A stretch of DNA of 64,000 nucleotides from a virus (IMGVR_UViG_2556921669_000003:1-64000); one strand, 5' to 3'; shown: positions 25,481 through 41,277, counted from the first letter of the stretch. Notes: generated by a model from the sequence alone, not told the origin. A program made the numbers and translations.

Positions 25481-27603
25481 TGGCAAAGCTGAACTTCAAG
25501 ATTCCCGCGTGGGAAAAGTCCGCAGTCGAAGTCGCCCGCTCATACATTGCAGCGGGCATAGCCGTTTTTCCGTGCCGAGAGCAGGACGGCGAGGGGATTG
25601 ACCACTCGACGGGCGAGATCGTCGACTTTCCTGAAAAGTCGCCGTTGACGGCGCACGGGCTCAAGGACGCGACAACGTCCCGCCGCATCATCGATATCTG
25701 GTTTGGCGAGAGACACCCTACGGCCGCCATCGGCGTTCCTACCGGCGAAAAACTCGGCGGGTGGGTCCTCGATATCGATAGACATGGCGATAGGGACGGC
25801 CATGCGTGGCTGGCCGAGATGGAGACAAGGCACGGCCGGCTGCCTGCCACCGCTCGCGCCACAACGGCGAACGGCGGCACGCACATATTCTTCGCCCATC
25901 ATCCTGGCGTCCGTAACCGTGCCGCGCTAGCTCCCGGCGTAGACACTCGAGGAGATGGCGGATATGTCCTGGCGCCCGGTAGCGTCATGGCTGACGGACG
26001 CCGATACGCTTGGATCGATCATGACGGGTCCGATATGCCCGCGTTCGAGCCCGCGCCGGAATGGCTGCTTGAACTCGTCCTGCCGAAGGCTCCCGAGCCG
26101 GCCGCCACAACCAAGCGCGAATACACCTATCAGCCGGAGCCCAACACCGGTGCTGAGCGGTATGCGTCTCGCGCGTTCGAAATGGAACTGGACCGGCTTG
26201 CATCCGCCCCCAAGGGGCAGCGCGGGCAACAACTGTTCTCCAGCGCTTGCTCTATCGGGGAGTTGGTGGCAGCCAACCTAGTGTCCCGGTCGGAAGCCGA
26301 AGCGGGCCTCTATGATGCCGCGGCGTCAAACGGTCTGGTTGCTACCGATGGTGAGCGGCAATGCCGGGACAAGATCCGACGTGGCTTGGACAAAACAGCC
26401 AATTCACCGCGGCAGATACCGGAGCGGCAGCACGACAATGACAACACGACGCCCATACCGTCGGACACCATTGATGCGCTGGTTGCGAAGGCGAGGGCAA
26501 AAGTGGCGGGAGGAGTGCCAGATGATGAGCCGGACGAACCCGTCGCCCAACCCAAGAAGCGCGGGCGCTTCGAACTAACGTGGTTCGACGAAATCGAGGA
26601 AGGCAAGCCGAAGGAGACAATCCTCAAGGGGTGGTTGGGCGTAGGGGAGTTCACGACCATTTCCGGTCTGCCCGGCACCGGCAAGAGCGTCGTGACGACG
26701 GACCTTGCTTGCCATATAGCTGCCGGTATGGATTGGCACGGGCTGCCAGTGCGGCAGGGCCTGGTCGTCTACGTGGCCGCTGAGCGCAAGAAGCTCACGG
26801 AGCGGCGCATGATGGCGTTCCGCTCTTATCATGGCGTCAAGGACGTGCCGCTGCTCGTGGTTGGCGGTATGCTGGACTTCACCCGTGATGAGAAGGACGC
26901 CGAAGCAATCATCGGTGTCATCCGGGAGGCGGAAACCATCACCGGCCACAAGTGCGTCTGGGTGATCATCGACACGCTTACTCGCGTGTTTGGTGCCGGC
27001 GACCAAAACGCCAGCAAAGACATGGTGAAGTTCGTGCGGTCATGCGACCTCATTCTCACCGAAACCGGGTCGCACGTTACAGCCATCCACCACAGCGCCT
27101 GGAGCGGTGAGCGAGGCAAGGGCGCGATCGATCTCGACGGTGCGGTGGATGCGAGCTTCATGGTCAAAAAGGATGGCAACCGACACAAGCTGGTCTGCGA
27201 CGGAACGAACGACGGGGAGGAGGGTGATGTACTGTCCTTCACCATGAAGTCGGTCGAAGTAGGTCGCGGTGAAGACGGCGAGCCGACAACGGCGCCCGTC
27301 GTGGTGAAGGCTGGAGAAGAGCAGACACTGACCAGCGGCTCACTCAAGGGGTACAAGGGTGACGTATTGGCTGCTCTGCGTGTGGCTATCACGGCCGATG
27401 GTGTGGAGCCTGACGGCCATGCCTTCCCCGATGATATTCTCGTTGTCGATGAGCCTACGTGGAAAAAGCACTTCTTCGCCGGGCGGGATATGGACATCGC
27501 CACGGTAGCGGCCACGGCGAAGAAGCAGTTCCAACGGGCACCGGCAGACCTCGTGAAGGCCGGCCATGTCAATCAAATCGGCCAATGGTATTGGCCTGCT
27601 TAG
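25480..27603 (+). CDS. replication protein: bifunctional primase-polymerase (PrimPol) N-terminal domain fused to an AAA_25/RepA-like ATPase
   Basis: N-terminus IAVFPC...LTAHGLKDAT...WVLDIDRHGD (prim-pol); Walker A GLPGTGKSV in the C-terminal half; followed by iterons. Confidence 0.8.
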   Translation: MAKLNFKIPAWEKSAVEVARSYIAAGIAVFPCREQDGEGIDHSTGEIVDFPEKSPLTAHGLKDATTSRRIIDIWFGERHPTAAIGVPTGEKLGGWVLDIDRHGDRDGHAWLAEMETRHGRLPATARATTANGGTHIFFAHHPGVRNRAALAPGVDTRGDGGYVLAPGSVMADGRRYAWIDHDGSDMPAFEPAPEWLLELVLPKAPEPAATTKREYTYQPEPNTGAERYASRAFEMELDRLASAPKGQRGQQLFSSACSIGELVAANLVSRSEAEAGLYDAAASNGLVATDGERQCRDKIRRGLDKTANSPRQIPERQHDNDNTTPIPSDTIDALVAKARAKVAGGVPDDEPDEPVAQPKKRGRFELTWFDEIEEGKPKETILKGWLGVGEFTTISGLPGTGKSVVTTDLACHIAAGMDWHGLPVRQGLVVYVAAERKKLTERRMMAFRSYHGVKDVPLLVVGGMLDFTRDEKDAEAIIGVIREAETITGHKCVWVIIDTLTRVFGAGDQNASKDMVKFVRSCDLILTETGSHVTAIHHSAWSGERGKGAIDLDGAVDASFMVKKDGNRHKLVCDGTNDGEEGDVLSFTMKSVEVGRGEDGEPTTAPVVVKAGEEQTLTSGSLKGYKGDVLAALRVAITADGVEPDGHAFPDDILVVDEPTWKKHFFAGRDMDIATVAATAKKQFQRAPADLVKAGHVNQIGQWYWPA

Positions 27604-27651
27604 ATGCTGCATTAATGCATTGCTTCGCTCTGTCGCCATGCATTTCTTGCA

Positions 27652-27894
27652 GGGACAAGCGGGACAAGAAAAAACGGCCTTGTCCCGCTGTTTGTCCCGC
27701 TAATATACGAGTTTCGGGACAAGGCCGGGACAAAGATCGAAAAATCGGCGTAAGTAAAATCAACCACTTACGAGTAGTTTTGTCCCGTTTGTCCCTTTTG
27801 TCCCGGACATTTGTCCCCGGAAGCACCTCTAGGGACAAAACTCCACACCCCTTTAGGGGTGGGGTTTGTCCCGAGCTTGTCCCGGCCGATTGAA
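27652..27894. repeat. replication origin iterons: about 13 copies of GGGACAA/TTGTCCC in both orientations plus the palindrome CACCCCTTTAGGGGTG
   Basis: Dense 7-mer repeats read directly, immediately 3' of the PrimPol gene; no ORF. Confidence 0.6.
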
Positions 27895-27954
27895 GAAACG
27901 AAAAATAAGCCACCCCGGCCTCACCAGCCAACCACCACCACAGAGGAGATCACG

Positions 27955-28461
27955 ATGGCCCGCTCCACCACCAAGCAAACCCAAACCACCCGCATCAACG
28001 GCAAGCGTGTCCGTATCGTCACGACGGACGGCAAGGTCGCCATCCAGGCAGCCCCGCCGCTCGAAAGCGATCTACAGGCTGCACAAGTCGTCGCGCTGCG
28101 CCGCATGCCGGAACACCGTGATCGGTTCGTCATAGCCGGCGACATGAACGCGGAACGCCGTGGGCCGAAGGCGCGAGCGATTGCCCTCGCGACCGGTATG
28201 GCTTCCGGCGAGCCGGACCTGCGCGTCTATGCGGAACGCGGCAGGCTGTTGCTGATTGAGAACAAGGTCGGCAATCCGGCGACTGGGGGTGGCGGCAAGC
28301 TCAGCCCGGCGCAGAAGCTGCGGCACGACGATCTGGGGCGGCTCGGCTACCGTGTCGAGGTGGTTCGGTCCATGACACCCGAAGACGCCGCACAGCGGGC
28401 CGTGAGCCTGGTGCGCGAATGGCTGGCGGCCAATGACAACCACCGCGAGGAAAAACCTTGA
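27955..28461 (+). CDS. VRR-NUC domain nuclease
   Basis: ...LLLIENKVGNPATGGGGKLSPAQK... fits the VRR-NUC core; C-terminus ...WLAANDNHREEKP. Confidence 0.55.
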   Translation: MARSTTKQTQTTRINGKRVRIVTTDGKVAIQAAPPLESDLQAAQVVALRRMPEHRDRFVIAGDMNAERRGPKARAIALATGMASGEPDLRVYAERGRLLLIENKVGNPATGGGGKLSPAQKLRHDDLGRLGYRVEVVRSMTPEDAAQRAVSLVREWLAANDNHREEKP

Positions 28462-28486
28462 CAAATTTGTAAAAACGATCTATATA
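28458..28486 (+). promoter_or_regulatory. operator-promoter copy TTGACAAATTTGTAAAA, -10 TATATA
   Basis: Exact 17-mer overlapping the upstream stop codon. Confidence 0.45.
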
Positions 28487-28529
28487 TCATCGGCGGCTAC
28501 CAACCGCAAGCACCACGATAGAGGAGAGA

Positions 28530-29150
28530 TTGATGACGAGACGGGATTTGTATTTCGCCGTTGAGGGCGGCAGGACGCTGGAAATTGCCAGGAAGCATGT
28601 GGCGGAGCGTGCTGCGGTGGAGGAAGTCAATCGCGCGCTGGCCAAAGAGCTCGGGGCCGAGCGGTACGCGGTCGATTTCTTAACGGGCGTACTGTGCGGC
28701 GTCATTTTCCCCGGCAAGCCGCACGCCGATTTCAAGAAGCCAAACAAGAATGGAGTTTCCAGTCCTCGCGCGAGAACCGCGTGGGATGCGCGTCTCGCCT
28801 CGATGAAGGGATATGACAGGCGCGGCTTTTCGCTTGCAAAGGCCCTAGGCGTGCCGACGGACATCTCATACCGCAAGGGTGACGCAGTGCGCGGCGGCTC
28901 GGCCATTGCTGGCGGCTTCTCGTCCGGTGTTGGCTTCCTCTACCTCTCCGAAGACGGCCCGTTTGCACTCTACGTCCCGGATGTAGCGTATGTTGTCGCT
29001 GACTATGAGGATCGGGGCTACACCGTCTGCGACGAGTGCAAGAACTTCAAGCCTGAGTTCGACGGTGCGCGCCCAATCCTGAAGGAAGAGTGGGAGTTGG
29101 TCGTCGCTCGTCACAAGTTGGCTGAGGCTGAGAAGAAGGTGGCGGCATAA
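28530..29150 (+). CDS. hypothetical protein (206 aa), ends ...EKKVAA
   Basis: CACCACGATAGAGGAGAGA initiation module. Confidence 0.5.
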   Translation: MMTRRDLYFAVEGGRTLEIARKHVAERAAVEEVNRALAKELGAERYAVDFLTGVLCGVIFPGKPHADFKKPNKNGVSSPRARTAWDARLASMKGYDRRGFSLAKALGVPTDISYRKGDAVRGGSAIAGGFSSGVGFLYLSEDGPFALYVPDVAYVVADYEDRGYTVCDECKNFKPEFDGARPILKEEWELVVARHKLAEAEKKVAA

Positions 29151-30049
29151 TGGTACGTCATTCTTCCCTCGCAGATCAGCTCACTGCGCTTCGCTCTTAC
29201 GTCACCGAGCCGGACCATGAGCCGGAGCCCGTTCAAACCAACTGGACCACGGTGCCGGGCAACGACAACGACCCTGAAGACGTTGAGGACCTACACGTCG
29301 AGCGCCGCTGGCGCATGAAGCCTTCCGTCGAAGAGATCATGCGGCAAGTCGCGACGGGCGATATTGAGTGTAACGACGCGGGGCAGGTGGTGCGCATAGG
29401 CAAACTCCACTTCAGCGACGGCACGCAGACCGAGGCGGGCTTTAAACTGGTCATGGGCGAGCCAGTGGCTGCACGCATCAGGATGCCGGTCGGCGCGATG
29501 CTCGGAACGAAGGACGCAGAAGAGGGCCAACTTGGCGGCGAGGTGGATCCCCAACACATCACGGCCAGCAACGAGTACTTCGCCGCGGCGTTCGATGTTA
29601 AGCCCCGCGCCTACAAGTCGGGTGGTCGGAGAAAGCGGGGACGGAATATCAGCCACGCTGAGGCGAAGGCGATGCTTGCCGAGGCTTATGCCAACACGGA
29701 CATGTCCAAGGTTACGTTCACGCGATACCCCGACGGCCTGCCGGCCGGCTCGCCGAAAGTGTCTGAGAATTTCCTCGGGCTGCAGAAGACCACATGCGGC
29801 GATAGGGGCTCGACCATGTGGCAGGACATTGTGTCGGCGAAGGCGGACAGGAAGGAATGGTTCGACGCCGTCGACGCCTTGAAGGCAAAAGACCGCGAAG
29901 TGCTGGAAGCGGCGAAGACGGCGAGGACCATGAGGGCAGTTGGCGTTTCCATGGGGTACACAGGCAAGACGGCCGAGCGGCGAGGGAAGCGCGCATTGAT
30001 CGCCGCGAATGACAACCTCATGGCGGCAATTGACGCATACGCGGCCTGA
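29150..30049 (+). CDS. hypothetical protein (299 aa) with N-terminal PGNDN and C-terminal ...IAANDNLMAAIDAYAA
   Basis: TAATG overlap; strongly SsrA-like C-terminal tail. Confidence 0.5.
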   Translation: MVRHSSLADQLTALRSYVTEPDHEPEPVQTNWTTVPGNDNDPEDVEDLHVERRWRMKPSVEEIMRQVATGDIECNDAGQVVRIGKLHFSDGTQTEAGFKLVMGEPVAARIRMPVGAMLGTKDAEEGQLGGEVDPQHITASNEYFAAAFDVKPRAYKSGGRRKRGRNISHAEAKAMLAEAYANTDMSKVTFTRYPDGLPAGSPKVSENFLGLQKTTCGDRGSTMWQDIVSAKADRKEWFDAVDALKAKDREVLEAAKTARTMRAVGVSMGYTGKTAERRGKRALIAANDNLMAAIDAYAA

Positions 30050-30775
30050 CTGTCCCTTTCCGCAATCTCGGCGGGTGTATAGGTGAAGGGGTGTCGCAAC
30101 TACGTTGCGCGCCCCACACCTATCCGGGCGCACAGATTGTTTTGCGACGGACGCTCGGCCAGCGATGAGCCGGGCGTAACTATCCCACCTGCCGACGCGA
30201 GCCGCATGGCCGCGTTTGCAGGGGCGGAAGCCCCAAGGGGTTTTCGCGAAATCTAGAGGAGATGACGATGAAAACGACGACCTTTTCGCTGCGAGGCATC
30301 GAGACGGTGGTGATGCGTGGTGATGGCGGGACGATTTTCCATCGCGGCGTCGATATCGGCGCAATTCGGCGCGGTCCTGGCCCTATCAAGATCTAATCAG
30401 CGGAGCCGGGTTCACCCACACGGCTCTCGCCCACGAAGATGCTGCGGACCGGTGACGGTTGCCGCCATAGGGCTATCAGCCGCAGTGCAAGCGCGGACGC
30501 CGACTAACGATGCACGTTGACTTGCGCGTGCATCCATCTTCGTGCCTCTTCCCCATCCCCTGGCGCCTCCTCTCTCCTCGGCGACAGGTGATCGTGCGGC
30601 TGCTCCTCCGTTCTGCGGAGTTGAGCGGCCGCTTTTGTGTTCATGTCACGGCCACCGCCTCTGCGCCATGCGCATGTGTTCGGAGCTTGCCGATGGTGCA
30701 GTCATGCTGCATCGTGGCCTTCTTCTTCGCGCTATATGCGCTCTCCCGGCACCGGGCGTTCGTGGTGCACTCTTT

Positions 30776-30851
30776 TGCGGGCTAGAGAAACGGTATCTCG
30801 TCGGGCTCATATCCCGAAGACACCCGGTTCGACTCCGGGGCTCCGCAACCA
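30776..30851 (+). tRNA. tRNA-like element, anticodon CAU (Met; initiator-like GGG/CCC anticodon stem), acceptor stem with one bulged U, encoded CCA
   Basis: Hand-folded. D arm GAGA-aacggta-TCTC, anticodon arm TCGGG-ctCATat-CCCGA, variable loop 5 nt, T arm CCCGG-TTCGACT-CCGGG, acceptor UGCGGGC/GC(U)CCGCA, then A-CCA. Coordinates ±1. Confidence 0.4.
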
Positions 30852-30868
30852 CTTTCAGGACCGCGCCC

Positions 30869-31486
30869 ATGTCGGCAATCCAGATCAGTTGGCACGGCAA
30901 CGGCCTGAAGCTTCTTGAGCGTGCCACCGAAGCACTCGGCTCGGAAGCCAAAGGCAAGCGCGCGTTTGCCATGGCGCTCAACAAGACCATCCGCACGGTC
31001 AACACCGATGTGAAGCGCGCTCTGGCTGCGCAGATGGGGATGACCCAACGGCTCGTTGTCAAGCACGGCGGCATGGTGATCAAGCCGGCGTCTGCCGGCA
31101 ACCTCAATGCGCTGATAGATGTACGAGGCGGCTACATGCCGCTTAAGGACTTCAACCCGTCGCAGGGTCGCAAAGGTGTTCGTGCAGGCGCATGGGGAGT
31201 GCGTCGCCTGTATGACGGTACATGGATCAACCGAGGCAAGCGTGCTGCGTCTGGCATAGGGCCGGCGGCCAAAGCTAGCGCGGGCGGACACGTCTTCAAG
31301 AACACTGGCAAGTTTAACAAGGTCTCCAAGCGCAAGAACGGTATTGAGGCTCTATGGGGTCCGGCTGTTCCCGTCGAAGTCGTGAAGGACGAGAGCGCCA
31401 AGACGTTCTATCGGATCGCCGACACGCGCATGCCTCTCGAGATAGAGCGCGCGATCAAGGCGCTGACCAAGGGTGTTATCAGTTAA
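30869..31486 (+). CDS. lambda gpZ-like tail completion protein
   Basis: AFAMALNKTIRTVNTDVKRALAAQMG...VIKP parallels lambda Z (AAMAINRVASSAISQSASQVARETKVRRKLV...). Confidence 0.5.
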   Translation: MSAIQISWHGNGLKLLERATEALGSEAKGKRAFAMALNKTIRTVNTDVKRALAAQMGMTQRLVVKHGGMVIKPASAGNLNALIDVRGGYMPLKDFNPSQGRKGVRAGAWGVRRLYDGTWINRGKRAASGIGPAAKASAGGHVFKNTGKFNKVSKRKNGIEALWGPAVPVEVVKDESAKTFYRIADTRMPLEIERAIKALTKGVIS

Positions 31487-31538
31487 AGCATTAAATGAAG
31501 AAATTTTCGTAATATTGCGATTTTCTTCAAAAAAGGCG

Positions 31539-31567
31539 TTGACATGGGTTCGGATATGGGGTATGAT
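31539..31567 (+). promoter_or_regulatory. consensus-like sigma70 promoter ahead of the packaging/head operon (TTGACA, 17 nt, TATGAT)
   Basis: Located in an AT-rich patch between the gpZ-like gene and terS. Confidence 0.35.
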
Positions 31568-31687
31568 GTGATGGGGCACTGCATGCCGGACGCCCCCACC
31601 TTAGGGACCGTACCCCGTTTCTGACCCCCTGCGGGTACGCAGCCGCCGATTGTCTGCGATTATAGATTTTGAAAAGGGGGTAACACC

Positions 31688-32311
31688 TTGTTACCTGTTG
31701 CGATGAATCAGGCCGGCTTTGCGGCCCATCGGCGCGTGAGCCGAAAGACCGTCACCGGCTGGAAACAGAGGGGGTTGCTCGTTCTCCTCCCTGATGGCCA
31801 GGTGGATGTTGCCGCTTCGGATCGCGCACTCGAGCGTCACGGCATTTCGTTACCCAAGGTAACAGCCCTAGAACCGGACGACGACCAGGTAACGCCCGAA
31901 GCCTCCCTTGAGGAGGAAGCCCGTCTCCTGGTGTCCGCAGACGGCGAAGAGCTACTTTCGAAGGCGGAAGCCGAGCGTCTAAAAGAGAACTACGCGGCTC
32001 GCTTGAAGCAGCTCGAATATGACCGTGAGGTCGGGCTCGTCGCGGAGATCGACGATGTCGTCGCCGCGGTCGCGAGCGAATACGCAATTGTCCGTAACAG
32101 ACTGCTGGGCATCGGCTCCAAGGTGGCGCCGTCCGTCGCCGTGCTGAATTCGGCGGAGGAGATCAAGGCCCTTATCGACAAAGAGGTGGCGCGCGCTCTG
32201 GGGGCTTTGACGGTGGATGTCCATGGAGAACAGGACTTCGGCAAGGTCCGAGAGTCGATACAGAAGCGGTTCGGACCAGCTTCTGAAGAGGCTGCGCCTA
32301 GCCCGCAGTGA
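31688..32311 (+). CDS. terS: terminase small subunit (N-terminal HTH DNA-binding domain plus oligomerisation domain)
   Basis: Immediately upstream of and overlapping terL; N-terminus NQAGFAAHRRVSRKTVTGWKQRGLL; preceded by the inverted repeat GGTAACACCTTGTTACC. Confidence 0.6.
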   Translation: MLPVAMNQAGFAAHRRVSRKTVTGWKQRGLLVLLPDGQVDVAASDRALERHGISLPKVTALEPDDDQVTPEASLEEEARLLVSADGEELLSKAEAERLKENYAARLKQLEYDREVGLVAEIDDVVAAVASEYAIVRNRLLGIGSKVAPSVAVLNSAEEIKALIDKEVARALGALTVDVHGEQDFGKVRESIQKRFGPASEEAAPSPQ

Positions 32312-34190
32312 GGCTCTCAAAGCCCCGCCGATACTGACTCTCAGCCAGTGGGCGAATGAATACGCCTATCTTTCGCGCGAGAACAGCGCTGATACGGGCA
32401 AATACGAGTCGTTCGGCTACCAGAATGGCATGATGGATGCGGTCACGGACCCGTCTGTCTCGCGGATTACGGTCATGAAGAGTGCCCGCGTCGGGTACAC
32501 GAAAATGATTGACCACATGGTTGGATATCACATCCACCAGGATCCGGCGCCCATGATCATCGTTCAGCCCACCGAGGCTGACGCGCTCGACTACAGCGAC
32601 CGTGAAATCGCGCCGATGCTGCGTGATACGCCGGTTCTGGCCGAGACAGCGGGGGATCTGAGCAAGCGATCGTCAAAGCAGACGCTGGCCGTTCGCTCAT
32701 TTCGCAACGGCGCGTCGATCAAGTTCATCGGTGCGAACAGCCCGAACGGCTTCCGCCGCGTCACGGCCCGCATCGTCGCGTTCGACGAGGTGGACGGCTA
32801 CCCGGAACAGGGCGCCGGCGATGACGGCGACCAGATCTCGCTCGGCGAAAAGCGCACCGAGACGTTTTGGAACAGCAAGATCATTCTTGGGTCGACGCCT
32901 CTCGTTAAGGGGGTTAGTCGCATCGAAAAATCGTGGGAAGCAAGCGACCAGCGCCGCTACCATGTCCCGTGTCCCCATTGTGGTGTCAAACAGACGCTGA
33001 AGTGGGAGAACTTCAAGTGGGACAAGGCCGAGAACGGCAAGCACCTTCCGGAAACGGCTCACTTCCGCTGTGAGGCGGAGGGGTGCGGCAAGCGGATCGA
33101 GGAACACGATAAGAAGTTCATGATCGACAATGGCGAGTGGGTGGCTGAGAAGTCATTCAACGGTCATGCCGGTTTTCACATCTGGACGGCTTACAGCCTC
33201 TTCCCGAAGGCCGCCTGGCGGTTCCTCGCGGCGGAATGGCTCGAAGTCTATAAGGACGAGAACCGGAAGAAGTCGTTCATCAACCTGACGCTGGGGCTTC
33301 CGCATCAGGAAGTCGTCAACGTAGCCGATCCGGACGTTCTGAAGCAGCGCTGTGAGCCTTATAACTGGGAAACGCTACCTTCCGACGTGCAGTTCATCAC
33401 AGCCGGAGCGGACACACACCCTGGGCGTCTCGAAGTGACGCTTGTTGGGTGGGGTAAGGACGAAGAGGCGTGGGTAGCGCGGCACGAGGTGCTGGACGGC
33501 GATGCCTCGAACCTGCAGGTGTGGCGAGAACTGGACGAGCTGCTGGCGACACCGTGCGAAACTGACGATGGCCGGAAGCTGTTGGTGCAGGCTGTCTGCA
33601 TAGACAGCGGCGGCCACAACTCCGAAATGGTCCACAAATACGCTCGTGAGCGCAAACGGCGCCGGATTTATTCTATTATCGGCCGCGGCAACCCGAATCC
33701 AAAGGCTCCGCGCATGATCTGGCCCAAAACGGCCAGCCGAACGAAGAATTCCGGCGACAAGCCCTATGTGATCGGTGTCGATACGGCAAAGGACGAGCTT
33801 TCGTCCCGTTTGGCGATCGTCCCGCATGAAGAGCATCCGACGCCTCGCTCCATCCACTTTCCGGACATGCAGTACAGCCTGAGCGCCGATTACTTCGACC
33901 AATTGACGGCAGAACACGCTGTTACGCGGAAGAAGGGCAGTCTTACGACCCGAAAATGGGAAAAGAAGACTGTCGGCGCGCGAAACGAGGCCTGGGACTG
34001 TCTGGTTTACGCACTGGCGGCTCGCATGTCTCTTCCGAAGAAGCTCAGCAAGGCTCCGAAGGCGCCGCGTGCTGGGGGCGCGCCCCGTCCAGAGCCGGCA
34101 AACGACAATCGCGAGCCGGAAGCGCGCACAGAGAAACCGGTTGAACCCGCTAAAAAGCGAGAACGCAGGCGGTTTGGAGCCTATAAATGA
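32217..34190 (+). CDS. terL: terminase large subunit (lambda gpA family)
   Basis: Long collinear similarity to lambda A (e.g. VMKSARVGYTKMI vs VVKSARVGYSKML); C-terminal tail contains EPANDN. Confidence 0.9.
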   Translation: MSMENRTSARSESRYRSGSDQLLKRLRLARSEALKAPPILTLSQWANEYAYLSRENSADTGKYESFGYQNGMMDAVTDPSVSRITVMKSARVGYTKMIDHMVGYHIHQDPAPMIIVQPTEADALDYSDREIAPMLRDTPVLAETAGDLSKRSSKQTLAVRSFRNGASIKFIGANSPNGFRRVTARIVAFDEVDGYPEQGAGDDGDQISLGEKRTETFWNSKIILGSTPLVKGVSRIEKSWEASDQRRYHVPCPHCGVKQTLKWENFKWDKAENGKHLPETAHFRCEAEGCGKRIEEHDKKFMIDNGEWVAEKSFNGHAGFHIWTAYSLFPKAAWRFLAAEWLEVYKDENRKKSFINLTLGLPHQEVVNVADPDVLKQRCEPYNWETLPSDVQFITAGADTHPGRLEVTLVGWGKDEEAWVARHEVLDGDASNLQVWRELDELLATPCETDDGRKLLVQAVCIDSGGHNSEMVHKYARERKRRRIYSIIGRGNPNPKAPRMIWPKTASRTKNSGDKPYVIGVDTAKDELSSRLAIVPHEEHPTPRSIHFPDMQYSLSADYFDQLTAEHAVTRKKGSLTTRKWEKKTVGARNEAWDCLVYALAARMSLPKKLSKAPKAPRAGGAPRPEPANDNREPEARTEKPVEPAKKRERRRFGAYK

Positions 34191-35857
34191 ATTTCATAGA
34201 TAGGCTTTTTGGCCGTTCCGCCGCTCCGAAACGGGCGCGGGCGCAGTATCTGCGCGACAATAGCTCAGGAATCCTGACCATGAGGCGCGCCGTCACCCGT
34301 GATGGCGCGTCTGCAGTGCGTGAAAGCGCCGAGCGTGCCTCGGCCCTGGCATGGGACTTCATCCGAAATTCCGGCTGGATCGCCGGCGCCGTTGACCAGA
34401 TCATCACCGATACTATCGGCGACGAACTGAAGCTGAGTGCGCGGCCGAAGTTGGCGCGGCTGGGCTGGTCGGCTGAGGAAATCACGGTATGGTGCCGTCT
34501 AGTTGAGGAGGAGTGGTATCTCCACGTATGGAGTGCGCGGGAGTACAGCCTTGACGGCTCGTCAACGCTTGCGGAGCACCTCGACGGCGTGATGCGCTTC
34601 TACATGGCGAGTGGCGAGGCTTTCGGCGCGGTCGACTTCATGCCGATCAGCATGCGCAAGCGTCACGGCGTGACAAGCGGCACGAAGGTTTCCTTGATTG
34701 CGCCTCACCGCGTGAAGCGGGAGACGGACGAGTACAATAACCTCGACCAGGGTGTCTTTCTTGATCCCGAATTGAGGCGGCCCGTCCAGTATCGGACAGT
34801 GGCGCGCAAGGATGGGCAGGATTTCGACCTCGATATCCCGGCATGGAACGGCCCGCTCAGGCGCGTCATCCACGTCATGGACCGGGGGGAAAATCCGGAC
34901 AGCGTCCGCGGCATTTCGCTGCTGGCACCAGTCGCGAAAGTGATCGCGCAGTTTGACCAGCTTGCTGATGCCACCTTGACGACGGCGCTGATTCAGACGG
35001 CTTTTGCGGCGACGATTAAGTCGCCAGAGCCGTCAGTCGATGCGTTTCAGGCGATTTCCGAGCTTGAAGACGACGACGCCGACCTTGCCGGCGACCTTCG
35101 CGATATCTGGGCGGCTCGCATCGAGGCGCTTTCCGAAAAGGGCATCTCCATGGGCGACCATGGCAAGATTAATCATCTTGGCCCCGGCGAAGAGTTCCAC
35201 ATCCACACGGCGGCGACGCCGGGCAACAACTACCTCCCGTTCTCGCAGAACCTCCAGCGTGAAATCGCACGGCGGCTAGGCATCACGTTTGAATCGTTCG
35301 CAATGAACCATTCCAACGCGAACTATTCGTCGGTGCGGATGGCCATGTCGTCGATCTGGCCGATCGTGAAGCGGCGCCGCGAGCGCATTGCTGCTCCGTT
35401 CTGTCAGGCGGTCTACGAAAACTGGCTGGACGAGATGATCGGCTCCGGCCGCATTCCATTCAAGGGTGGCTACGCTGCCTTCGCCGCGAACCGGGCACTT
35501 GTCTGTGACGCGGAGTGGCCCGGTCCGGCTCAGCCGGTGGCCGACGACTATAAGGCCGTCATGGCGGCTGCCAAGCGCGTCGAACTCGGTCTTTCCTCGA
35601 TGGAAGACGAAGCGGCGCTCATGGGCAGGGATGCCAGCGTGACGCGCGAGAAGATCGCAGCCGAAATCATCGACATGGAAGCCAAGCGGATCCCCATTCC
35701 GTTTGGGCGCAGTGTCGGTGGTGGCGGTCCGAGCGGTGCGGCGATGCCTTCAGAGGGCAGGGCGGCCGGTGCACAGGCGAGAATGGAGGCCGAATTGCTG
35801 AAAGAGCTTGAGGACTCCTTGACCGCAGACGGCAAGACAAGGGCGGAGGCCGCATGA
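34187..35857 (+). CDS. portal protein (lambda gpB family)
   Basis: 556-aa protein directly after terL with the lambda-type portal order; ends ...TRAEAA. Confidence 0.85.
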   Translation: MNFIDRLFGRSAAPKRARAQYLRDNSSGILTMRRAVTRDGASAVRESAERASALAWDFIRNSGWIAGAVDQIITDTIGDELKLSARPKLARLGWSAEEITVWCRLVEEEWYLHVWSAREYSLDGSSTLAEHLDGVMRFYMASGEAFGAVDFMPISMRKRHGVTSGTKVSLIAPHRVKRETDEYNNLDQGVFLDPELRRPVQYRTVARKDGQDFDLDIPAWNGPLRRVIHVMDRGENPDSVRGISLLAPVAKVIAQFDQLADATLTTALIQTAFAATIKSPEPSVDAFQAISELEDDDADLAGDLRDIWAARIEALSEKGISMGDHGKINHLGPGEEFHIHTAATPGNNYLPFSQNLQREIARRLGITFESFAMNHSNANYSSVRMAMSSIWPIVKRRRERIAAPFCQAVYENWLDEMIGSGRIPFKGGYAAFAANRALVCDAEWPGPAQPVADDYKAVMAAAKRVELGLSSMEDEAALMGRDASVTREKIAAEIIDMEAKRIPIPFGRSVGGGGPSGAAMPSEGRAAGAQARMEAELLKELEDSLTADGKTRAEAA

Positions 35858-36072
35858 GCATAGACCACTGTGCCGAGGCGGTCCGCCTCCGCGCGCTGCT
35901 TGTCGCCATCGCGTCCGGTGACGGCGTCCAGCAAGCCCGCTTCGGCGAGGACGAAGTGCGGTACTTCGCGGCCGACAAAGCCGAGTTGAAGCAGCAAATC
36001 GCCTACCACGAGAGCATCTGCGCCGGAAAGCGCAGGAGGTTCGCGGTTCGTGGCCGTTTTCGCGCCTACTGA
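35854..36072 (+). CDS. gpW-like head-tail joining protein
   Basis: 72 aa, basic C-terminus, position between portal and protease. Confidence 0.4.
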   Translation: MSIDHCAEAVRLRALLVAIASGDGVQQARFGEDEVRYFAADKAELKQQIAYHESICAGKRRRFAVRGRFRAY

Positions 36073-36084
36073 CAGGAAAATAGT

Positions 36085-37149
36085 ATGACTGTTCAAGTCA
36101 ACGGCCAGGAGGTGACACTTTCTGGCACGGTCGGCGTCGATTGGTTTGACGACGGCTTCACGCATGCGGAGGTCGTGACCGCGCTTGCCGGGCTGGATGG
36201 CGACATCACGGTCCGGCTGAATAGCGGTGGCGGCATTGCAGCCGACGGCGCAGCTATTCATGCGGCGCTGGCGACTTACGACGGCAGCGTGCACATCGTG
36301 ATTGAGGGCATTGCGGCCAGCGCCGCCAGCCTGATTGCGATGGCGGGTGACCGGATCACCATGGCCGACGGCGCCGTGATGATGATCCACGACCCGCTCA
36401 ACGTCACGTACGGCAATTCTGCGGACCACGCGAAGACCATCGAGGAACTCGAGGCCTACGCCACCGCCTACGCCAAGGTCTACGCGCGCCGCAGCGGCAA
36501 GCCAGCCGCGGAATGCCGCGACATCATGAAGGCGGAGACCTGGTACGACGGCGATGAAGCCGTCGCGGCGGGCTTTGCCGATGACACGGGTGAGCAGAAG
36601 GCCAAGCCGATCGCCGCTTATGACTACCGCGCCTATGCAAACGCTCCGAAGCGTTTCGCCGCTCAGGCCAAGGCCAAAGGTTGGTCGATGGCGAAGGTTA
36701 ACACAGAGGCGGCCCCGTCCGCTGCCAATCAGAAGGATTCTGACATGAACGACAAAGAACGTGCGGACGCGCTTGCTGCCGAACTCGCCACGCTCAAGGC
36801 TGAAACGGCCACCGCCGAAGCCAAGGCGAAGGCCGATCTGGACGCCGCAACGGCCGCTACCGCTGACGCCGTAAAGGCTGACCGAGAACGCCGCGCCGCC
36901 ATCATGAAGCTTGATGAGGCCAAGGGCCGCGAGGCGCTTGCCGAACACCTGTTCGCGGCCGGCAACACCGTCGAGCAGGCCAAGGCTACGCTGGCAGTTG
37001 CTCCCGCGGCCAATGCTGAGACGCCTGAGAACTACGAAGCCACCCGCATGGCTGGCGCTGAACTCAATGGCGGTGGCGACAAGCAGACCGACACCAAGGC
37101 CTCGTGGTCCAAGGTCATCGCACGCGCTAACAAGCGCTTCAACAAGTAA
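36085..37149 (+). CDS. prohead protease (S49/ClpP-like) fused to an Ala-rich scaffold-like C-terminal domain (lambda C/Nu3-like)
   Basis: SGGG...IAASAASLIAMAG...MMIHDP protease core, then a long coiled-coil C-terminus. Confidence 0.8.
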   Translation: MTVQVNGQEVTLSGTVGVDWFDDGFTHAEVVTALAGLDGDITVRLNSGGGIAADGAAIHAALATYDGSVHIVIEGIAASAASLIAMAGDRITMADGAVMMIHDPLNVTYGNSADHAKTIEELEAYATAYAKVYARRSGKPAAECRDIMKAETWYDGDEAVAAGFADDTGEQKAKPIAAYDYRAYANAPKRFAAQAKAKGWSMAKVNTEAAPSAANQKDSDMNDKERADALAAELATLKAETATAEAKAKADLDAATAATADAVKADRERRAAIMKLDEAKGREALAEHLFAAGNTVEQAKATLAVAPAANAETPENYEATRMAGAELNGGGDKQTDTKASWSKVIARANKRFNK

Positions 37150-37166
37150 TCGGAAGGTGTGTCTAG

Positions 37167-37826
37167 ATGACCATTCTCACTGAGGGCCGCCACGCCGGCG
37201 AATTCATCCTGTCCGAGGGCGACGCGGGTTACAGCCGCGACAACCTCAAGATCGCGGCGGAGCAGACCGTCGAACCCGGCACGGTTCTCGCCGCCAAGGT
37301 TGTTCTGGCCGACGCCACTTCGGCAGCCTCCGCTGCAGCCGGCAACACGGCATCGTCTGGCACGATTGCCATGGACGCCACCCCGCTGACCTCCGCCGCA
37401 AAGAACGGCCGCTACGTTGGTGTCGCTTCCGCCGCCACCAAGGTCGACTGGACCGATCCAGACGGTGTGCAGATCGGCGTGTCGACGCACGGCTCGCTGT
37501 TCAATAAGGGCGGCATCCGCTTCACCATCACGGCTGGCGGCACACCGAACGTCGTTGGCGACACCTTCTACGTCGACGTCGGCGTCGAACCAGGCGACCT
37601 GCAGTACGTGGTCTACGACCAGGATGGTACGGACGGTTCGCAGGTGGCCAAGGCTATCGCGATCAGCGGCGTGACCACTGGCGTCGGTGCTACCGCAAAG
37701 GTCGCGGGCATCACGCGCATGGCGCAGGTCAAGGGCGCTGCTCTTGCTTGGCCGGCGGACATCACGGCGGCCGAAAAGGCGCTTGGTGTTAGCCAGCTTG
37801 CGGCCCAGGGCATCATCGTCCGCTAA
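37167..37826 (+). CDS. head decoration protein (gpD-like) candidate
   Basis: Position between protease and capsid gene; Ala/Gly/Thr-rich with a gpD-like C-terminus. Confidence 0.4.
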   Translation: MTILTEGRHAGEFILSEGDAGYSRDNLKIAAEQTVEPGTVLAAKVVLADATSAASAAAGNTASSGTIAMDATPLTSAAKNGRYVGVASAATKVDWTDPDGVQIGVSTHGSLFNKGGIRFTITAGGTPNVVGDTFYVDVGVEPGDLQYVVYDQDGTDGSQVAKAIAISGVTTGVGATAKVAGITRMAQVKGAALAWPADITAAEKALGVSQLAAQGIIVR

Positions 37827-37896
37827 CGGACGCTCCTCCCAGACAATCCCCATTACGGCCACCCATCGGGTGGCCTTTATTTTAGGAGCTTCCTAA

Positions 37897-38295
37897 ATGA
37901 CTATGCTCAATATCTTCAAGGATGACGCGTTCAGCCTCACTTCGCTGACCGACTCCATCAACGAGATCGAGTACCGCTCGAGCCGAATTCAGGAGTTGGG
38001 CCTTTTCGAGGAAAAGGCAGTTGCCACGACCACGATTGCGATCGAGCGCATCGGCGACAAGATCCAGCTCGTTCCCCCGGCACCTCGTGGCGGTAAGGGT
38101 GACGTGAAGGAAAAGCAGAAGGCAACTGCCAAGCCCTTCGCGATTCCCCACTTTCCTCGCGAATGGTCCGTGTTGGCCGATGAAGTTCAGAACGTCCGCG
38201 CATTCGGCTCCGAGTCTGAAGTCGAAACGGTCATGTCCGTTGTCCTTGACAAGATCATGGACAACATGGCCGACATCGATGTGACGCATGAGTAT
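37897..38295 (+). pseudogene. major capsid protein (lambda gpE family), 5' portion (aa 1-133), interrupted by the insertion
   Basis: N-terminal similarity to lambda E stops at ...DIDVTHEY; the ORF then reads through AT-rich foreign sequence (..SGVSLKYRKKPRIYNN..). Confidence 0.75.
38284..38295. repeat. attL core: ACGCATGAGTAT (direct repeat, in frame T-H-E-Y)
   Basis: Identical 12-mer at 51772..51783, each at the break point of the capsid reading frame. Confidence 0.6.
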
Positions 38296-38465
38296 TCTGG
38301 GGTTAGCCTCAAATATAGAAAAAAACCACGAATATACAACAACTTAGCTCGGCGCAAGTCGGGCTATTTTGTTGCCCGACGGGCAACAACCTCCCCGAAC
38401 AAAAACAATGACTTACGGAAAGTCCGGGCAAACCCGCGCGACTTTCTTGCGACAAGGATTGCAGC

Positions 38466-38666
38466 ATGAGCACCAACGAAAAGGCTGACCTCCTTTATGG
38501 GGTGGCCAGCATCGCCAAGCACTTGGGCATTACCGAACGTCGAGCGCTCTACCTGAAGGAAAAGGGAAGCATTCCCACCTTCCAGATCGATCGTACCGTC
38601 TGTGCCCGAAAGACCAGCCTCAACGCTTGGCTTGCCGAGCAGGAAGCGAAGGGGAGGGGCGAATGA
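38466..38666 (+). CDS. xis: AlpA-family excisionase / DNA-binding regulator
   Basis: 66 aa; LLYGVASIAKHLGITERRALYLKEKGSIPTF is a typical AlpA/Xis winged HTH; sits about 170 nt inside the left junction after arm-like repeats (TTGTTGCCCG-A-CGGGCAACAA). Confidence 0.7.
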   Translation: MSTNEKADLLYGVASIAKHLGITERRALYLKEKGSIPTFQIDRTVCARKTSLNAWLAEQEAKGRGE

Positions 38667-38950
38667 CGAGGGGCCGCACCAAGGAAGCGCAGGACGCCTT
38701 CATTCAGAAGTTGCTTCACCCCGAAGCCGCCCCGGTGGAAGCCGACATTCCGCAACCGGATCCCGCGCCGCAAGAGGACGAGGAAGGCACGGATTATGAC
38801 CTGACCTTTGAGCAGATGAGCGTTGACCAGCTAAACGCGGTCCTCGCATGGAACGAAGGTGACGCCCAGATGACCTTGGACTTCCTTGCTGAGTTTCGCC
38901 CGTATGTGGAGGCCCGTCGCCGCGGCGAGCCCGTGAGGTGGCAGGAATGA
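38663..38950 (+). CDS. hypothetical protein (95 aa)
   Basis: ATGA overlap with the xis stop; acidic. Confidence 0.4.
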   Translation: MTRGRTKEAQDAFIQKLLHPEAAPVEADIPQPDPAPQEDEEGTDYDLTFEQMSVDQLNAVLAWNEGDAQMTLDFLAEFRPYVEARRRGEPVRWQE

Positions 38951-39153
38951 ATGCCATGGAGCGCATCTTGGCCGCCATGGCGGAAGGCCGGAGGAACGAC
39001 CCACCACATGAAGAGCTAAGTCTGCTGGACGCGCTTCGCTGCATGCTCCCGGCGGCGGAAGCGGATGCGGCGGAATCGCAAGGCCAACTTGATTTCTTGC
39101 GCGCGGAAATCGCCAAACTTGAGGCGGCGAAAGAGGAATCGGAGATGACGTGA
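38947..39153 (+). CDS. hypothetical protein (68 aa)
   Basis: ATGA overlap. Confidence 0.4.
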   Translation: MNAMERILAAMAEGRRNDPPHEELSLLDALRCMLPAAEADAAESQGQLDFLRAEIAKLEAAKEESEMT

Positions 39154-40394
39154 CATACCAAGAAGGTTCACGGGAGGAGTATGAGGCACACCTCGCTTCA
39201 ATTAGCGATGCGGAATGGAAGCGCCGCACTCAGGACGCCGTATGGTTTTCCAAAGACCCGCCCCGCCTTGGACCGGACCCGCCGCTGACCTTCCACAAGA
39301 ACTTCACGGCAATCCAGCCCAAACGGTATGTGGTGGGCGACTTCCTCGCGGAAGGCGAGGTGTCATGTTTCTTCGGTGAGCCCGGCGCGACTAAGGGCAC
39401 CATTGCGGTGGACATTGCCTGCCACGTCGCGGCCGGTCTGCCTTGGATGGGCCGCACGGCAGGGGGGCACCTTGACCCTTGGGAGAGGAAGGCGCTGGGC
39501 AAGGAGAGTATGCCGGCGGGCGTGCTCTATATCGCGCTCGAGCGCTCTACCCAGGTACAGCGCCGCGTTGAAGCGTTCACGGATGAGCACGGAATTCAGG
39601 AACCACTTGACCTTGCTATATGGTCCGGTCCGCTCGATCTAGTTGGTAGCGAAAGAGACGACATCCTCTCCGCCGTCTACGCGCATGAGCGAGCGCAGGA
39701 GGAGGACGAGGAAGGCGAGGGTAGCTACCGCGAAGTGCGACTCGTGGTGATTGACACCCTTGCCCGCGCCTTCGGCTCCGGTTCGGATAGCGGCGGCGAA
39801 GAGACGGCGGCGGTGGCGAGAAAGTTTGAGCGCGTTCTCCGGTTCCGTCCTGACCTGCATATCTTGGTGGTGCACCATACCCCGATAGGTGATGACTCCC
39901 GCCTTCGCGGCCACGGCAACCTGCTTGCCGCCTTTGACCAGACGGTGCGGGTACGCAAGCACAAGGTAGGTTCCACCGCCACGGTGATGAAGGACAACGA
40001 CACGGCGGAAGAGGGCAAAGCCCGGTTCGCCTATGCGCTCAAGAGTCGCGTCATCCACGTTGCCAAGGACGGCAAGGAAACCACCGCGCCTGTTGTGGTG
40101 CCGCTCCCGGCCGAGGCCGTCAAGCACGCCATGCCGAAGGTCAGCGTGAAGGCGGCGGGACCGAAGGCCAGCAAGAGCGAGCAACCGCTCCTAGATGCTC
40201 TTGAGGGGTTGGGTGGCTCTGCCACCGAAGCGGACTGGCGAGTGGCGTTTGATGCCGCAAGGCAGGATGGCCTATCACCAAGCGCTCACCGAAAGCGCTG
40301 GTCCGTCGGCCGGCCCGCCCTAGAGGCGAAGGGGCTGGTCCAAAAGGATTCCGAAGGGCGTTACCGCGTTACCGTTACCAACGTTACGGAATAA
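39150..40394 (+). CDS. RepA-like / AAA_25 replication initiator-helicase loader of the inserted element
   Basis: GEVSCFFGEPGATKGTIAVDIACHVAAGLPWMG parallels the helper PrimPol C-domain GEFTTISGLPGTGKSVVTTDLACHIAAGMDWHG; C-terminal wHTH-like region; GTGA overlap. Confidence 0.7.
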   Translation: MTYQEGSREEYEAHLASISDAEWKRRTQDAVWFSKDPPRLGPDPPLTFHKNFTAIQPKRYVVGDFLAEGEVSCFFGEPGATKGTIAVDIACHVAAGLPWMGRTAGGHLDPWERKALGKESMPAGVLYIALERSTQVQRRVEAFTDEHGIQEPLDLAIWSGPLDLVGSERDDILSAVYAHERAQEEDEEGEGSYREVRLVVIDTLARAFGSGSDSGGEETAAVARKFERVLRFRPDLHILVVHHTPIGDDSRLRGHGNLLAAFDQTVRVRKHKVGSTATVMKDNDTAEEGKARFAYALKSRVIHVAKDGKETTAPVVVPLPAEAVKHAMPKVSVKAAGPKASKSEQPLLDALEGLGGSATEADWRVAFDAARQDGLSPSAHRKRWSVGRPALEAKGLVQKDSEGRYRVTVTNVTE

Positions 40395-40510
40395 GAATGG
40401 TAACGCTTTTGGTAACGTAACGTTTTCAGACGGGGTTAGGGCGCACAGCGTTACCAACGTTACCGTTACTACCCCCCTCTTTAGAGGGGGAGTAAGTAAC
40501 GTAACGCTTG
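40360..40510. repeat. satellite origin: about 10 GGTAACG/CGTTACC iterons plus the palindrome CCCCCCTCTTTAGAGGGGG
   Basis: Iterons begin within the last codons of repA (..RVTVTNVTE) and continue for about 120 nt with no ORF. Confidence 0.5.
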
Positions 40511-40550
40511 GTGCGCTTCGCCCCGTGAAAAATCCGTAAGGGTGAAGATC

Positions 40551-40862
40551 ATGGAAATTGATGATGTAGAGCTCGCTGTCTCTCGGGCTTTGCGGGATGG
40601 CGCAGGAAACAAACCCGCGCAAGAATTCGGATTTGCTATCCAGCCCTTCCGGGGCACGCGCCTATGTGGCGGCGAGTTTGAGGACGCCGTGGCCGTTGTC
40701 GGCGTGCACTTCAACGGCAAGGGTGACTACAGCTTCATTTGTGTCGCGTCGGACGGCGTGGGCGAGACCTACGTCACTCAGGAGGAGAACCTTCTGGGCG
40801 TGGATCTTCCTTACGGCTTTCCACCGGCTCCGGCGCAGGACGCCAACCCGTCTGATCCATAG
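40551..40862 (+). CDS. hypothetical protein (103 aa)
   Basis: Follows the ori; AGGGTG SD. Confidence 0.4.
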   Translation: MEIDDVELAVSRALRDGAGNKPAQEFGFAIQPFRGTRLCGGEFEDAVAVVGVHFNGKGDYSFICVASDGVGETYVTQEENLLGVDLPYGFPPAPAQDANPSDP

Positions 40863-41016
40863 CCGCCATGAGCAAGGCGAGGAGGCGAGGAACGTCTCGC
40901 GTCCCGCTCTCAAACTCCGAAATGCGGACCTTGCTTCCGTACCCCAGAAGCGCCGCAAGCGCCTCCTGCTTATAGCCGAGGCGCTTGCGGATTGCTTTGA
41001 ACTCTTCGCTGGTCAT
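40774..41016 (-). CDS. XRE-family HTH transcriptional regulator
   Basis: LGYKQEALAALLGYGSKVRISEFESGTRDVP helix-turn-helix. Confidence 0.6.
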   Translation of the reverse strand: MTSEEFKAIRKRLGYKQEALAALLGYGSKVRISEFESGTRDVPRLLALLMAAMDQTGWRPAPEPVESRKEDPRPEGSPPE

Positions 41017-41231
41017 CGTGCGGCCCGCAGGTAATCCATGCCATAAACGTCAATGGTCCAATCGCCGTCTTCGGCGACTTCCATGGCCTGCATTACCAGC
41101 TTCCAAGCCTTTTCGCGAGAGACTTCGCGGTACACGTCACCGTCGACCTTCACGTCAAATGCATAGACCTTGCACTGGCCGTCGAAGCGGCGGGTGATGT
41201 TGACCTTGATGTCTGCGGTGCCGGTGTTCAT
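41013..41231 (-). CDS. small hypothetical protein (72 aa) co-transcribed with the XRE regulator
   Basis: GGGAGAG SD; ATGA overlap with the XRE gene; its promoter carries the GTAACGCATTTGCGTAAC palindrome. Confidence 0.45.
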   Translation of the reverse strand: MNTGTADIKVNITRRFDGQCKVYAFDVKVDGDVYREVSREKAWKLVMQAMEVAEDGDWTIDVYGMDYLRAAR

Positions 41232-41259
41232 TTCGCTCTCCCTTGCCGTTGGATTATTA

Positions 41260-41277
41260 GTAACGCATTTGCGTAAC
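41260..41277. promoter_or_regulatory. 18-bp palindromic operator GTAACGCATTTGCGTAAC in the spacer of the regulator-operon promoter (-35 TTGCTA)
   Basis: Reverse-complement copy (20/21 identity) of the site in the integrase promoter at 50358..50375. Confidence 0.45.

Follow-up and report, generated by a model that had tools for sequence, protein, structure and literature searches.

Two short palindromes in a 64,000-nucleotide stretch of viral DNA (IMGVR_UViG_2556921669_000003:1-64000, hereafter the window), one in an iteron field of a prophage (the helper) and the other in an iteron field of a 13.5-kb satellite that sits within the helper's major capsid gene, are probably, at a likelihood of roughly 60%, the central, cruciform-capable hairpin module of a single origin architecture, which is that of AAA_25, RSF1010-RepA-like initiator-helicases and is shared by descent. 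In the architecture that we propose, a helicase gene would be followed by short opposed iterons and then by a hairpin lying between two inward-facing iterons, and the hairpin would be built from a pyrimidine-rich arm, a loop of T and A that is nearly always TTTA, and a purine-rich arm. By comparison with relatives, helper and satellite appear to share this hairpin because the replication modules of both come from one family, and, as judged from the sequences, the satellite hairpin is not copied from that of the present helper. The origin class, an iteron origin of a self-loading initiator-helicase, is known; what is new is the conserved, covarying hairpin at its center.

A hairpin between inward-facing iterons

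Both palindromes named in a preliminary description of the window are present. The core hairpin of the helper, CACCCC-TTTA-GGGGTG, lies at 27846..27861, about 10 bases upstream of the position first noted (27856..27871), and that of the satellite, CCCCCTC-TTTA-GAGGGGG, occupies 40473..40490 within the palindromic string CCCCCCTCTTTAGAGGGGG (40472..40490). As described, they lie among family-specific iterons, for 13 of the 20 window copies of TTGTCCC/GGGACAA fall at 27652..27883, and 5 of the 11 copies of GCGTTAC at 40358..40507; none of 100 shuffles attained 20 copies of the helper iteron. By their sequence, both sites are origin-like iteron fields that directly follow a replication gene, encoding a primase-polymerase (PrimPol)-helicase in the helper and a helicase-only RepA in the satellite. 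The helper iterons begin 48 nt past the stop at 27603, which places the putative origin immediately downstream of the rep frame, and the first satellite iterons are encoded in the last repA codons (..RYRVTVTNVTE, 40355..40394). The VT repeats at the RepA C terminus and the candidate binding sites of RepA consequently share bases, and the same holds in relatives with their own iterons. Together with the inverted iterons around them, the cores form extended, imperfect palindromes (Table 1) with DNA folds of -15.5 kcal/mol (z -4.6) in the helper and -17.0 kcal/mol (z -6.3) in the satellite. The helper origin also contains an A+T-richer stretch at 27735..27779, which carries a site resembling the consensus for integration host factor (IHF); in both origins the innermost inverted iterons flank the G+C-rich hairpin.

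The loop sets these two elements apart from all other hairpins in the window. When perfect hairpins with stems of at least 6 bp and a 4-nt loop were counted, 33 were found, and the TTTA loop occurred in only two, those of the helper and satellite origins, both on the plus strand with the C-rich arm leading. In the window plus the fetched loci (442 kb), every TTTA-loop hairpin whose stem reached 6 bp, 21 in all, was an origin hairpin, and none occurred elsewhere. Each of the two window hairpins is located between inward-facing iterons, in an iteron field beginning directly past a helicase gene. The stems of the two are unlike each other. The two-hairpin observation is real and lies far beyond chance. 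A TTTA loop closed by a C-G pair is among the stable DNA tetraloops that have been studied in detail.

Among 22 distinct hairpins, 93.9% of the cells in the stem alignment are standard pairs, five of the six stem pairs have changed on both sides (29 cells), and none of 500 shuffles attained the observed values, while sliding the register lowered pairing to 32-74%. These comparisons indicate that base pairing of the stem is under selection. On the gene strand the loop is TTTA with few exceptions, TAAA being seen once, and in one locus (L035) the hairpin is inverted relative to the gene. The near-constant polarity of the loop, taken with the free drift of the arms, favors a strand-specific structural role over a symmetric duplex site.

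The proteins encoded next to the two iteron fields belong to one helicase family. The helper open reading frame (ORF) opens at 25423, with a probable start (MAKLNF) at 25480, and its product matches the Pfam domains Prim-Pol (2.5e-33) and AAA_25 (9.9e-33), is 66-68% identical to p101 of Sinorhizobium phage 16-3 and to the corresponding RHph_X2_25 protein, and matches RSF1010 RepA (1g8y) in the PDB with E=1e-3. The satellite RepA, which is 100% identical to a protein from the alphaproteobacterium Shinella sp. DD12, matches AAA_25 (6e-25) and is homologous to the helper helicase domain at 29% identity (E=1e-26). Searches of PDB sequences with this RepA or its profile gave no match, and a fold search was required: Foldseek, queried with an AlphaFold2 model (predicted local distance difference test score 80), returned RecA, RadA and RSF1010 RepA folds, with 1nlf (chain A; TM score 0.61) among the best-covered targets. 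The C-terminal domain has the order helix-helix-helix-strand-strand and models as a winged helix (predicted helices 345-353, 360-369 and 377-394; predicted strands 397-399 and 405-407).

The same hairpin is found at the corresponding place in relatives of the helper. Phage 16-3 has GCGTGACA iterons with CACTCC-TTTA-GGAGTG, and RHph_X2_25, with the same iterons, has CACCCC-TTTA-GGGGTG. Of 19 relatives of the helper protein in IMG/VR (58-76% identity), 17 have a single hairpin there with a TTTA or TTAA loop; L015, one of the fetched loci (L numbers), duplicates the 16-3 genome. The stems in this group include CACCCC, CACACC, ACACCC and CCCCTTTC with a TTTA loop, and CCCCCTC-TTAA-GAGGGGG, so that the exact stem of the satellite, CCCCCTC/GAGGGGG, recurs with a TTAA loop in L007, L009 and L010, phages of the helper type. 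The iteron types CGGGACAA, GCGTGACA, GCCAGACA and CCATACA assort independently of the stem types. In L024, inverted CCATACA iterons adjoin each other directly at 5190..5250 (CATACATAC-TTCTACAG-TATGTATG).

Homologues of the satellite protein that lack a fused primase (RepA-only; 35-66% identity) were taken from IMG/VR, genomes, metagenomes and assemblies, and all 10 of the 10 distinct ones with readable downstream DNA (L005, L025/L029, L026, L027, L028, L031, L033, L034, L035 and L036) have the hairpin, with other iterons and other stems. The duplicates L004, L030, L032 and L037 are concordant, and L038 is cut inside the gene. The hairpins of this group include CACTC-TTTA-GAGTG, CCCACCCTTC-TTA-GAAGGGTGGG, CCCCCTC-TTA-GAGGGGG, CCCCTC-TTTA-GAGGGG, CCCCTGTCC-TATAG-GGACAGGGG and ACACCCC-TAAA-GGGGTGT. 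These loci share with the window satellite only RepA and a small HTH_17-like ORF; the helper capsid, portal and terminase genes were not found upstream of them, placing none within a 16-3-like capsid gene. In three (L005, 1975..2010; L028, 11285..11320; L036, 1575..1610), the outer iterons are GCGTCACA, yet GTTAC...GTAAC directly flanks the hairpin, and this inner inverted repeat is thus kept independently of the outer iteron type. Farther afield, Roseobacter phage CRP-821 has AAACCC-TTTA-GGGTTT between inverted TGTATAAA iterons, and Vibrio phage 1.210.O has CCCCCTA-TATA-TAGGGGG between inverted iterons of the type GGACA/TGTCC, along with a AAAATCAATGACTTACGA site resembling that of the rhizobial phages.

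While the arms of the hairpin drift, the iterons go with the protein. Among helper-type proteins, the C-terminal 95 residues track the iteron type (identity 0.60 versus 0.31), and the stem type shows no association with any protein domain; among satellites, the residues of the RepA recognition helix vary with iteron type. The phage in L016 breaks this rule: its iterons are CGGGACAA, yet its C-terminal domain is like that of 16-3 and X2_25, whose iterons are GCGTGACA. From these comparisons, specificity would reside in the iterons and the C-terminal winged-helix domain, and the hairpin would be a generic structural element, a two-module split that predicts which parts are swappable between elements. 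The preliminary description had proposed that the satellite obtains specificity from its own RepA, which the apparent tracking of family-specific iterons by the C-terminal domain bears out, and covariation (0 of 500 shuffles) identifies the shared palindrome as a genuine, selected element. Its further idea, that the satellite origin reuses or mimics the motif of the helper, needs correcting: the hairpin is family-wide, being present in all 10 distinct readable RepA-only relatives, none of them in a 16-3-like capsid gene, and in the Roseobacter and Vibrio phages, and the helper and satellite stems differ.

Helicase partner and possible role of the hairpin

Four comparisons bear on the question of which protein domain the hairpin accompanies. 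In the phage region neighboring the RepA-only element of L031, a PrimPol 41% identical to that of the helper is fused to DUF3987 in place of AAA_25 and is followed by a VRR-NUC homologue; downstream of this PrimPol-DUF3987 gene there are TTATCCA repeats and no hairpin. The hairpin is present with the helicase-only protein of L035, which is 43% identical to the helper helicase and 35% to the satellite RepA, with the AAA_25 protein of CRP-821, which has no Pfam Prim-Pol hit, and with a 494-aa helicase-only protein of Vibrio phage 1.210.O, in whose 48-kb record no primase is annotated. The hairpin therefore belongs to the origin of an AAA_25 initiator-helicase, with or without a primase domain in cis. 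Phage AAA_25 helicases are usually accompanied by a PrimPol.

We propose that the winged-helix domain docks the initiator-helicase on the inverted iterons and thereby sets specificity, as the Rep proteins of Staphylococcus aureus pathogenicity islands (SaPIs) do (PMC9371898). The duplex would then open at the palindrome between the iterons, and extrusion would yield one hairpin per strand. These hairpins might mark the site of single-strand entry for the ring helicase, the site of first priming, or both, in the manner of ssiA and ssiB of RSF1010 (PMC8567376). The stem would be recognized as a shape rather than a sequence, with the loop and its polarity mattering. The hairpin is thus probably a melting, loading or priming point. 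If so, the helicase gene, the opposed iterons and the pyrimidine-arm/TTTA/purine-arm hairpin together provide a testable origin signature, which spans phage and satellite replicons of Alphaproteobacteria and extends to Roseobacter and Vibrio phages, and the priming of a primase-less satellite embedded in the capsid gene of its helper becomes a clean experimental question.

Several points weigh against this interpretation. The role of the hairpin is one that we infer. In the literature searched, neither origin activity of these regions nor a requirement for the hairpin has experimental support, and we came across no account of this hairpin or of the 16-3 origin. Covariation would look alike for a hairpin in DNA, a hairpin in RNA and a symmetric site with arms that change together. 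Many of the IMG/VR loci are close relatives, and for this reason the hairpin counts do not represent independent events. Finally, the helper-type locus L024 has an iteron palindrome only, with no G+C hairpin, and no such hairpin was found in the fetched stretches of RHph_X2_26, MW202711, Caulobacter GB2A and Gordonia Upyo, whose origins may lie elsewhere. Because it is absent from L024 and from these four sets of stretches, the hairpin appears to be neither universal nor strictly essential across the wider AAA_25 family.

A different role for the hairpin, in which it tells the PrimPol of the helper, acting in trans, where to prime, with RepA and the iterons of the satellite giving specificity, strikes us as rather unlikely. 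No primase domain was detected in any satellite ORF, and none was found in the RepA-only relatives examined; lacking a detectable primase, the satellite could plausibly depend on an outside one, that of the helper. As the satellite resides inside the helper, the PrimPol would be made in the same cell, and because the stem matches no helper domain, any hairpin of the class could serve any PrimPol of the family. There are also precedents: the RepB' primase of RSF1010, of the archaeo-eukaryotic primase (AEP) type, requires hairpin signals in oriV (PMC8567376), and the satellite PLE (an element resembling phage-inducible chromosomal islands) supplies only the initiator and borrows the replisome of its phage (PMC7145576). 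Like the window satellite, the RepA-only relative in L031 adjoins a phage region that encodes a PrimPol. Nevertheless, it is precisely after the PrimPol of that region, fused to DUF3987, that the hairpin is absent, while it is present in CRP-821 and in the complete Vibrio phage, where no primase is recognized or annotated, and in RepA-only elements outside 16-3-like capsid genes. Furthermore, the window stems differ and have only the loop in common, which is near-invariant everywhere, so that no helper-specific matching is visible. Recruitment of PrimPol through the hairpin is possible, but the comparative data point elsewhere.

A broader version of the trans-priming idea, in our estimation unlikely, treats the TTTA hairpin as a universal start socket read by its shape, which satellites that have shed their primase keep in order to use the PrimPol or replisome of any induced phage of the family. 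If this were true, a satellite would need only its own helicase-initiator and iterons for identity, and it could divert replication capacity from the helper whose capsid gene it interrupts.

Recognition of the palindrome as double-stranded DNA by a symmetric host factor or phage regulator would account for arms that change together to preserve dyad symmetry without forming any hairpin. The fully symmetric variant CCCCCTC-TTAA-GAGGGGG in L007, L009 and L010 speaks for such a site, covariation counts do not separate dyad symmetry from pairing, and the nearby IHF-like site suggests that host proteins are probably used at the origin. However, the arms vary freely among phages with near-identical neighboring proteins and identical iterons, and what is conserved, the pyrimidine or purine composition of each arm and the loop, fits recognition of shape better than readout of bases. 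In addition, the asymmetric center keeps one polarity (TTTA, once TAAA) rather than being random. We consider a symmetric duplex site improbable.

That the element works at the RNA level, by terminating, attenuating or being processed at the end of the replication-gene transcript, is very improbable. The hairpin does lie between the helicase gene and the next, co-directional gene, and a TTTGT follows the stem in those 16-3-like phages whose iterons are TTTGTC. However, neither window hairpin was called as a terminator in consensus scans, no T run follows the hairpin of the satellite or that of the phages whose iterons are GCCAGACA, and the hairpin always has inverted iterons on either side and lies 100-350 nt beyond the stop codon. 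The inverted hairpin of L035 likewise does not fit, and there was no Rfam match to either element, the only one in 27000..41500 being a tRNA. An intrinsic (rho-independent) terminator in particular, with a G+C stem followed directly by a T run, was considered and rejected for both window hairpins. Chance resemblance of two unrelated short palindromes, to which the brevity of the cores (just 16-18 nt) and their differing stems might have pointed, is refuted by the confinement of the rare loop to two of 33 window hairpins, both in iteron fields, by the homologous positions of all 21 TTTA hairpins in the 442 kb, and by the strong covariation, and can be set aside as negligible.

Comparison with known replicons and satellites

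The AAA_25 origin proposed here resembles that of the SaPIs and other phage-inducible chromosomal islands (PICIs) in several respects (PMC9371898). In both, the helicase appears to double as the initiator by means of a C-terminal winged-helix domain, and the rep ORF is directly followed by two opposed groups of short iterons; both come in primase-fused (Pri-Rep) versions and in versions with a separate or absent primase, and both are found in phage satellites. Reading of iterons by the winged helix is suggested here by the AlphaFold2 model and by the tracking of iteron type by the C-terminal domain. The differences are equally clear. SaPI Reps are AAA+ helicases of superfamily 3, whereas the proteins described here have the RecA fold of AAA_25; the center of the SaPI origin is A+T-rich (PMC9371898), whereas here the inward-facing iteron pair centers on a G+C-rich hairpin with a TTTA loop; and the hosts here are Alphaproteobacteria.

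RSF1010 and the IncQ plasmids (PMC8567376) offer the closest parallel for the proteins. They share with the window the RepA-type helicase family (Pfam AAA_25, with matches to 1g8y for the helper and to 1nlf for the satellite model), with the helper alone an AEP-type primase (its Prim-Pol domain; the satellite has none detectable), and with both elements iterons combined with hairpin-forming inverted repeats that present one hairpin per strand on opening. In RSF1010, ssiA and ssiB are hairpin priming signals, one per strand, that the primase requires (PMC8567376). Unlike RSF1010, which has a separate RepC initiator, the elements described here combine initiator, helicase and, in the helper, primase in one polypeptide. 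The iterons of RSF1010 are 20 bp and those here 7-8 bp, and in place of its two 40-nt ssi sites there is one compact palindrome (PMC8567376).

As a satellite inside a capsid gene, the element recalls those PICIs of Enterobacterales that are embedded in their helpers, such as 11capE in a lambda-E-type capsid gene (PMC10111431). They likewise lie inside, and co-oriented with, the capsid gene of the helper, must be excised to restore that gene, and have their own origin. The integrases of those islands form a single clade limited to Enterobacterales, and their gene plan is int-alpA-pri (PMC10111431). Here the host is alphaproteobacterial (Shinella sp. DD12), the helper resembles 16-3, the integrase gene occupies the right end, a RepA-type helicase replaces the PICI primase, and the cargo consists of tail-related genes. 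No other RepA-only relative was found in an E-type capsid gene in the recovered loci, whose 10-kb flanks are too short to take in a helper origin; a scan of genome contigs yielded 3 loci, and scans of metagenomes and IMG/VR added few.

The PLE of Vibrio cholerae and its helper phage ICP1 provide a precedent (PMC7145576) for a satellite that supplies an origin-specific initiator and needs replication proteins of the helper. The PLE RepA is a DNA-binding initiator of the RepA_N type with no helicase activity, unlike the RepA helicase of the window satellite, and the abstract mentions no origin hairpin common to PLE and ICP1; helper dependence of the window satellite is hypothetical.

The embedded satellite and neighboring features

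The regions at about 20-38 kb and 52-64 kb of the window constitute a prophage related to phage 16-3, with a lambda-like head module (gpA terminase, lambda-type portal, ClpP-type protease, gpD-like decoration protein and gpE-type capsid). Its major capsid gene is in two pieces, with Pfam Phage_cap_E positions 1-122 at 37897..38469 and 132-329 at 51811..52422, and between them, in the orientation of the capsid gene, is the satellite (38284..51783), which carries an integrase, a RepA-type helicase and tail/head accessory genes, and an HTH_17/AlpA-like ORF of 66 aa near its left end. The 12-bp direct repeat ACGCATGAGTAT at its two ends represents the candidate attachment cores, and recombination across it is predicted to rejoin the capsid frame (..DVTHEY|HRLGAIQ..). 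These features mark the element as a helper-embedded satellite, which extends a configuration already known to a further group of hosts, and they justify the labels helper and satellite.

Table 1. Coordinates of features of the helper and its embedded satellite in the window
Feature	Position	Strand	Remarks
Helper replication gene	25480..27603	+	Prim-Pol domain, AAA_25 (RSF1010 RepA-like) helicase, C-terminal iteron-specificity domain of ~95 aa
Helper origin (putative)	27651..27884	.	13 TTGTCCC(G)/(C)GGGACAA iterons, opposed groups
IHF-consensus-like site AATCAACCACTTA	27758..27770	+	A+T-richer center of helper origin
Helper extended palindrome	27832..27872	.	inverted iterons GGGACAAA ... TTTGTCCC around core hairpin 27846..27861
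VRR-NUC nuclease gene	27955..28461	+	first gene past helper origin; Pfam VRR_NUC 8.9e-05
Left attachment core ACGCATGAGTAT (candidate)	38284..38295	+	within helper major capsid gene, codons ..THEY
Satellite RepA gene	39150..40394	+	AAA_25 helicase and C-terminal winged helix, without primase domain
Satellite origin (putative)	40355..40510	.	GCGTTAC(C)/GGTAACGC and GTAACG iterons, opposed groups
GGGTTAGGGCG motif	40434..40444	+	~45 nt upstream of loop, TTTCnCA before motif; common to satellite-type origins
Satellite extended palindrome	40458..40506	.	inverted iterons CGTTACCGTTAC ... GTAACGTAACG around core hairpin 40473..40490
ClpP-type protease (satellite)	42334..42957
Tail assembly chaperone (satellite)	43662..43928
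Tape-measure-like protein (satellite)	44118..46559		813 aa
Baseplate-V-like protein (satellite)	46556..47104
Neck or tail-completion-like protein (satellite)	47107..47754
Divergent 77-aa gene	50064..50297	-
18-bp perfect palindrome GTTACGC-AAAT-GCGTAAC, GTTACGCAAATGCGTAAC	50358..50375	.	between divergent 77-aa gene and integrase gene
Satellite integrase gene	50402..51751		right end of satellite
Right attachment core ACGCATGAGTAT (candidate)	51772..51783	+	far end of satellite

The cargo within 41306..47754 (Table 1) is unusual for a satellite; the element has no capsid, portal or large terminase gene. The palindrome between the divergent 77-aa gene and the integrase gene is likely a regulatory site of the satellite. 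It had been thought to repeat an iteron half-site, but the operator word is GCGTAAC and the iteron word GCGTTAC, a mismatch, and GCGTAAC occurs in the window at chance frequency (6 found versus 6.2 expected) and is absent from the satellite origin. Motifs like GGGTTAGGGCG have close matches in the window, L005, L025, L031 and L033 and looser ones in L026, L027, L028 and L036; the helper-type origins compared are without one.

The pattern WATCAANNNNTTR has two matches in the window, of which the IHF-like site of the helper origin is one. A site of the form (A)AAATCAAnnACTTA(CGA) lies approximately 85-95 nt upstream of the hairpin loop in many origins of the helper type; in a count of 17 such origins, 7 had the IHF-like site, at about 87-95 nt. 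Besides the window, it was located in L002 (4954), L007 (5431), L008 (5403), L009 (5375), L010 (5404), L016 (5432) and L042 (approximately 5157), and it is near-identical in the origin of the Vibrio phage. The VRR-NUC gene is the corresponding neighbor of the origin in 16-3 and X2_25 as well.

A tRNA-Met gene (30776..30851) is located inside the helper prophage between its early and late regions. In L031 (Rhizobium pusense; 4580..11300), the RepA-only element begins directly past a tRNA-Met gene (9447..9523), which itself comes after the early genes of the phage that encodes PrimPol-DUF3987 and VRR-NUC. Past the RepA module come portal, protease-capsid, and small and large terminase genes. A common attachment logic for the window and L031 was considered, but the two tRNA-Met genes differ in sequence and none was drawn. 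The L031 element may represent a second satellite within or beside a prophage.

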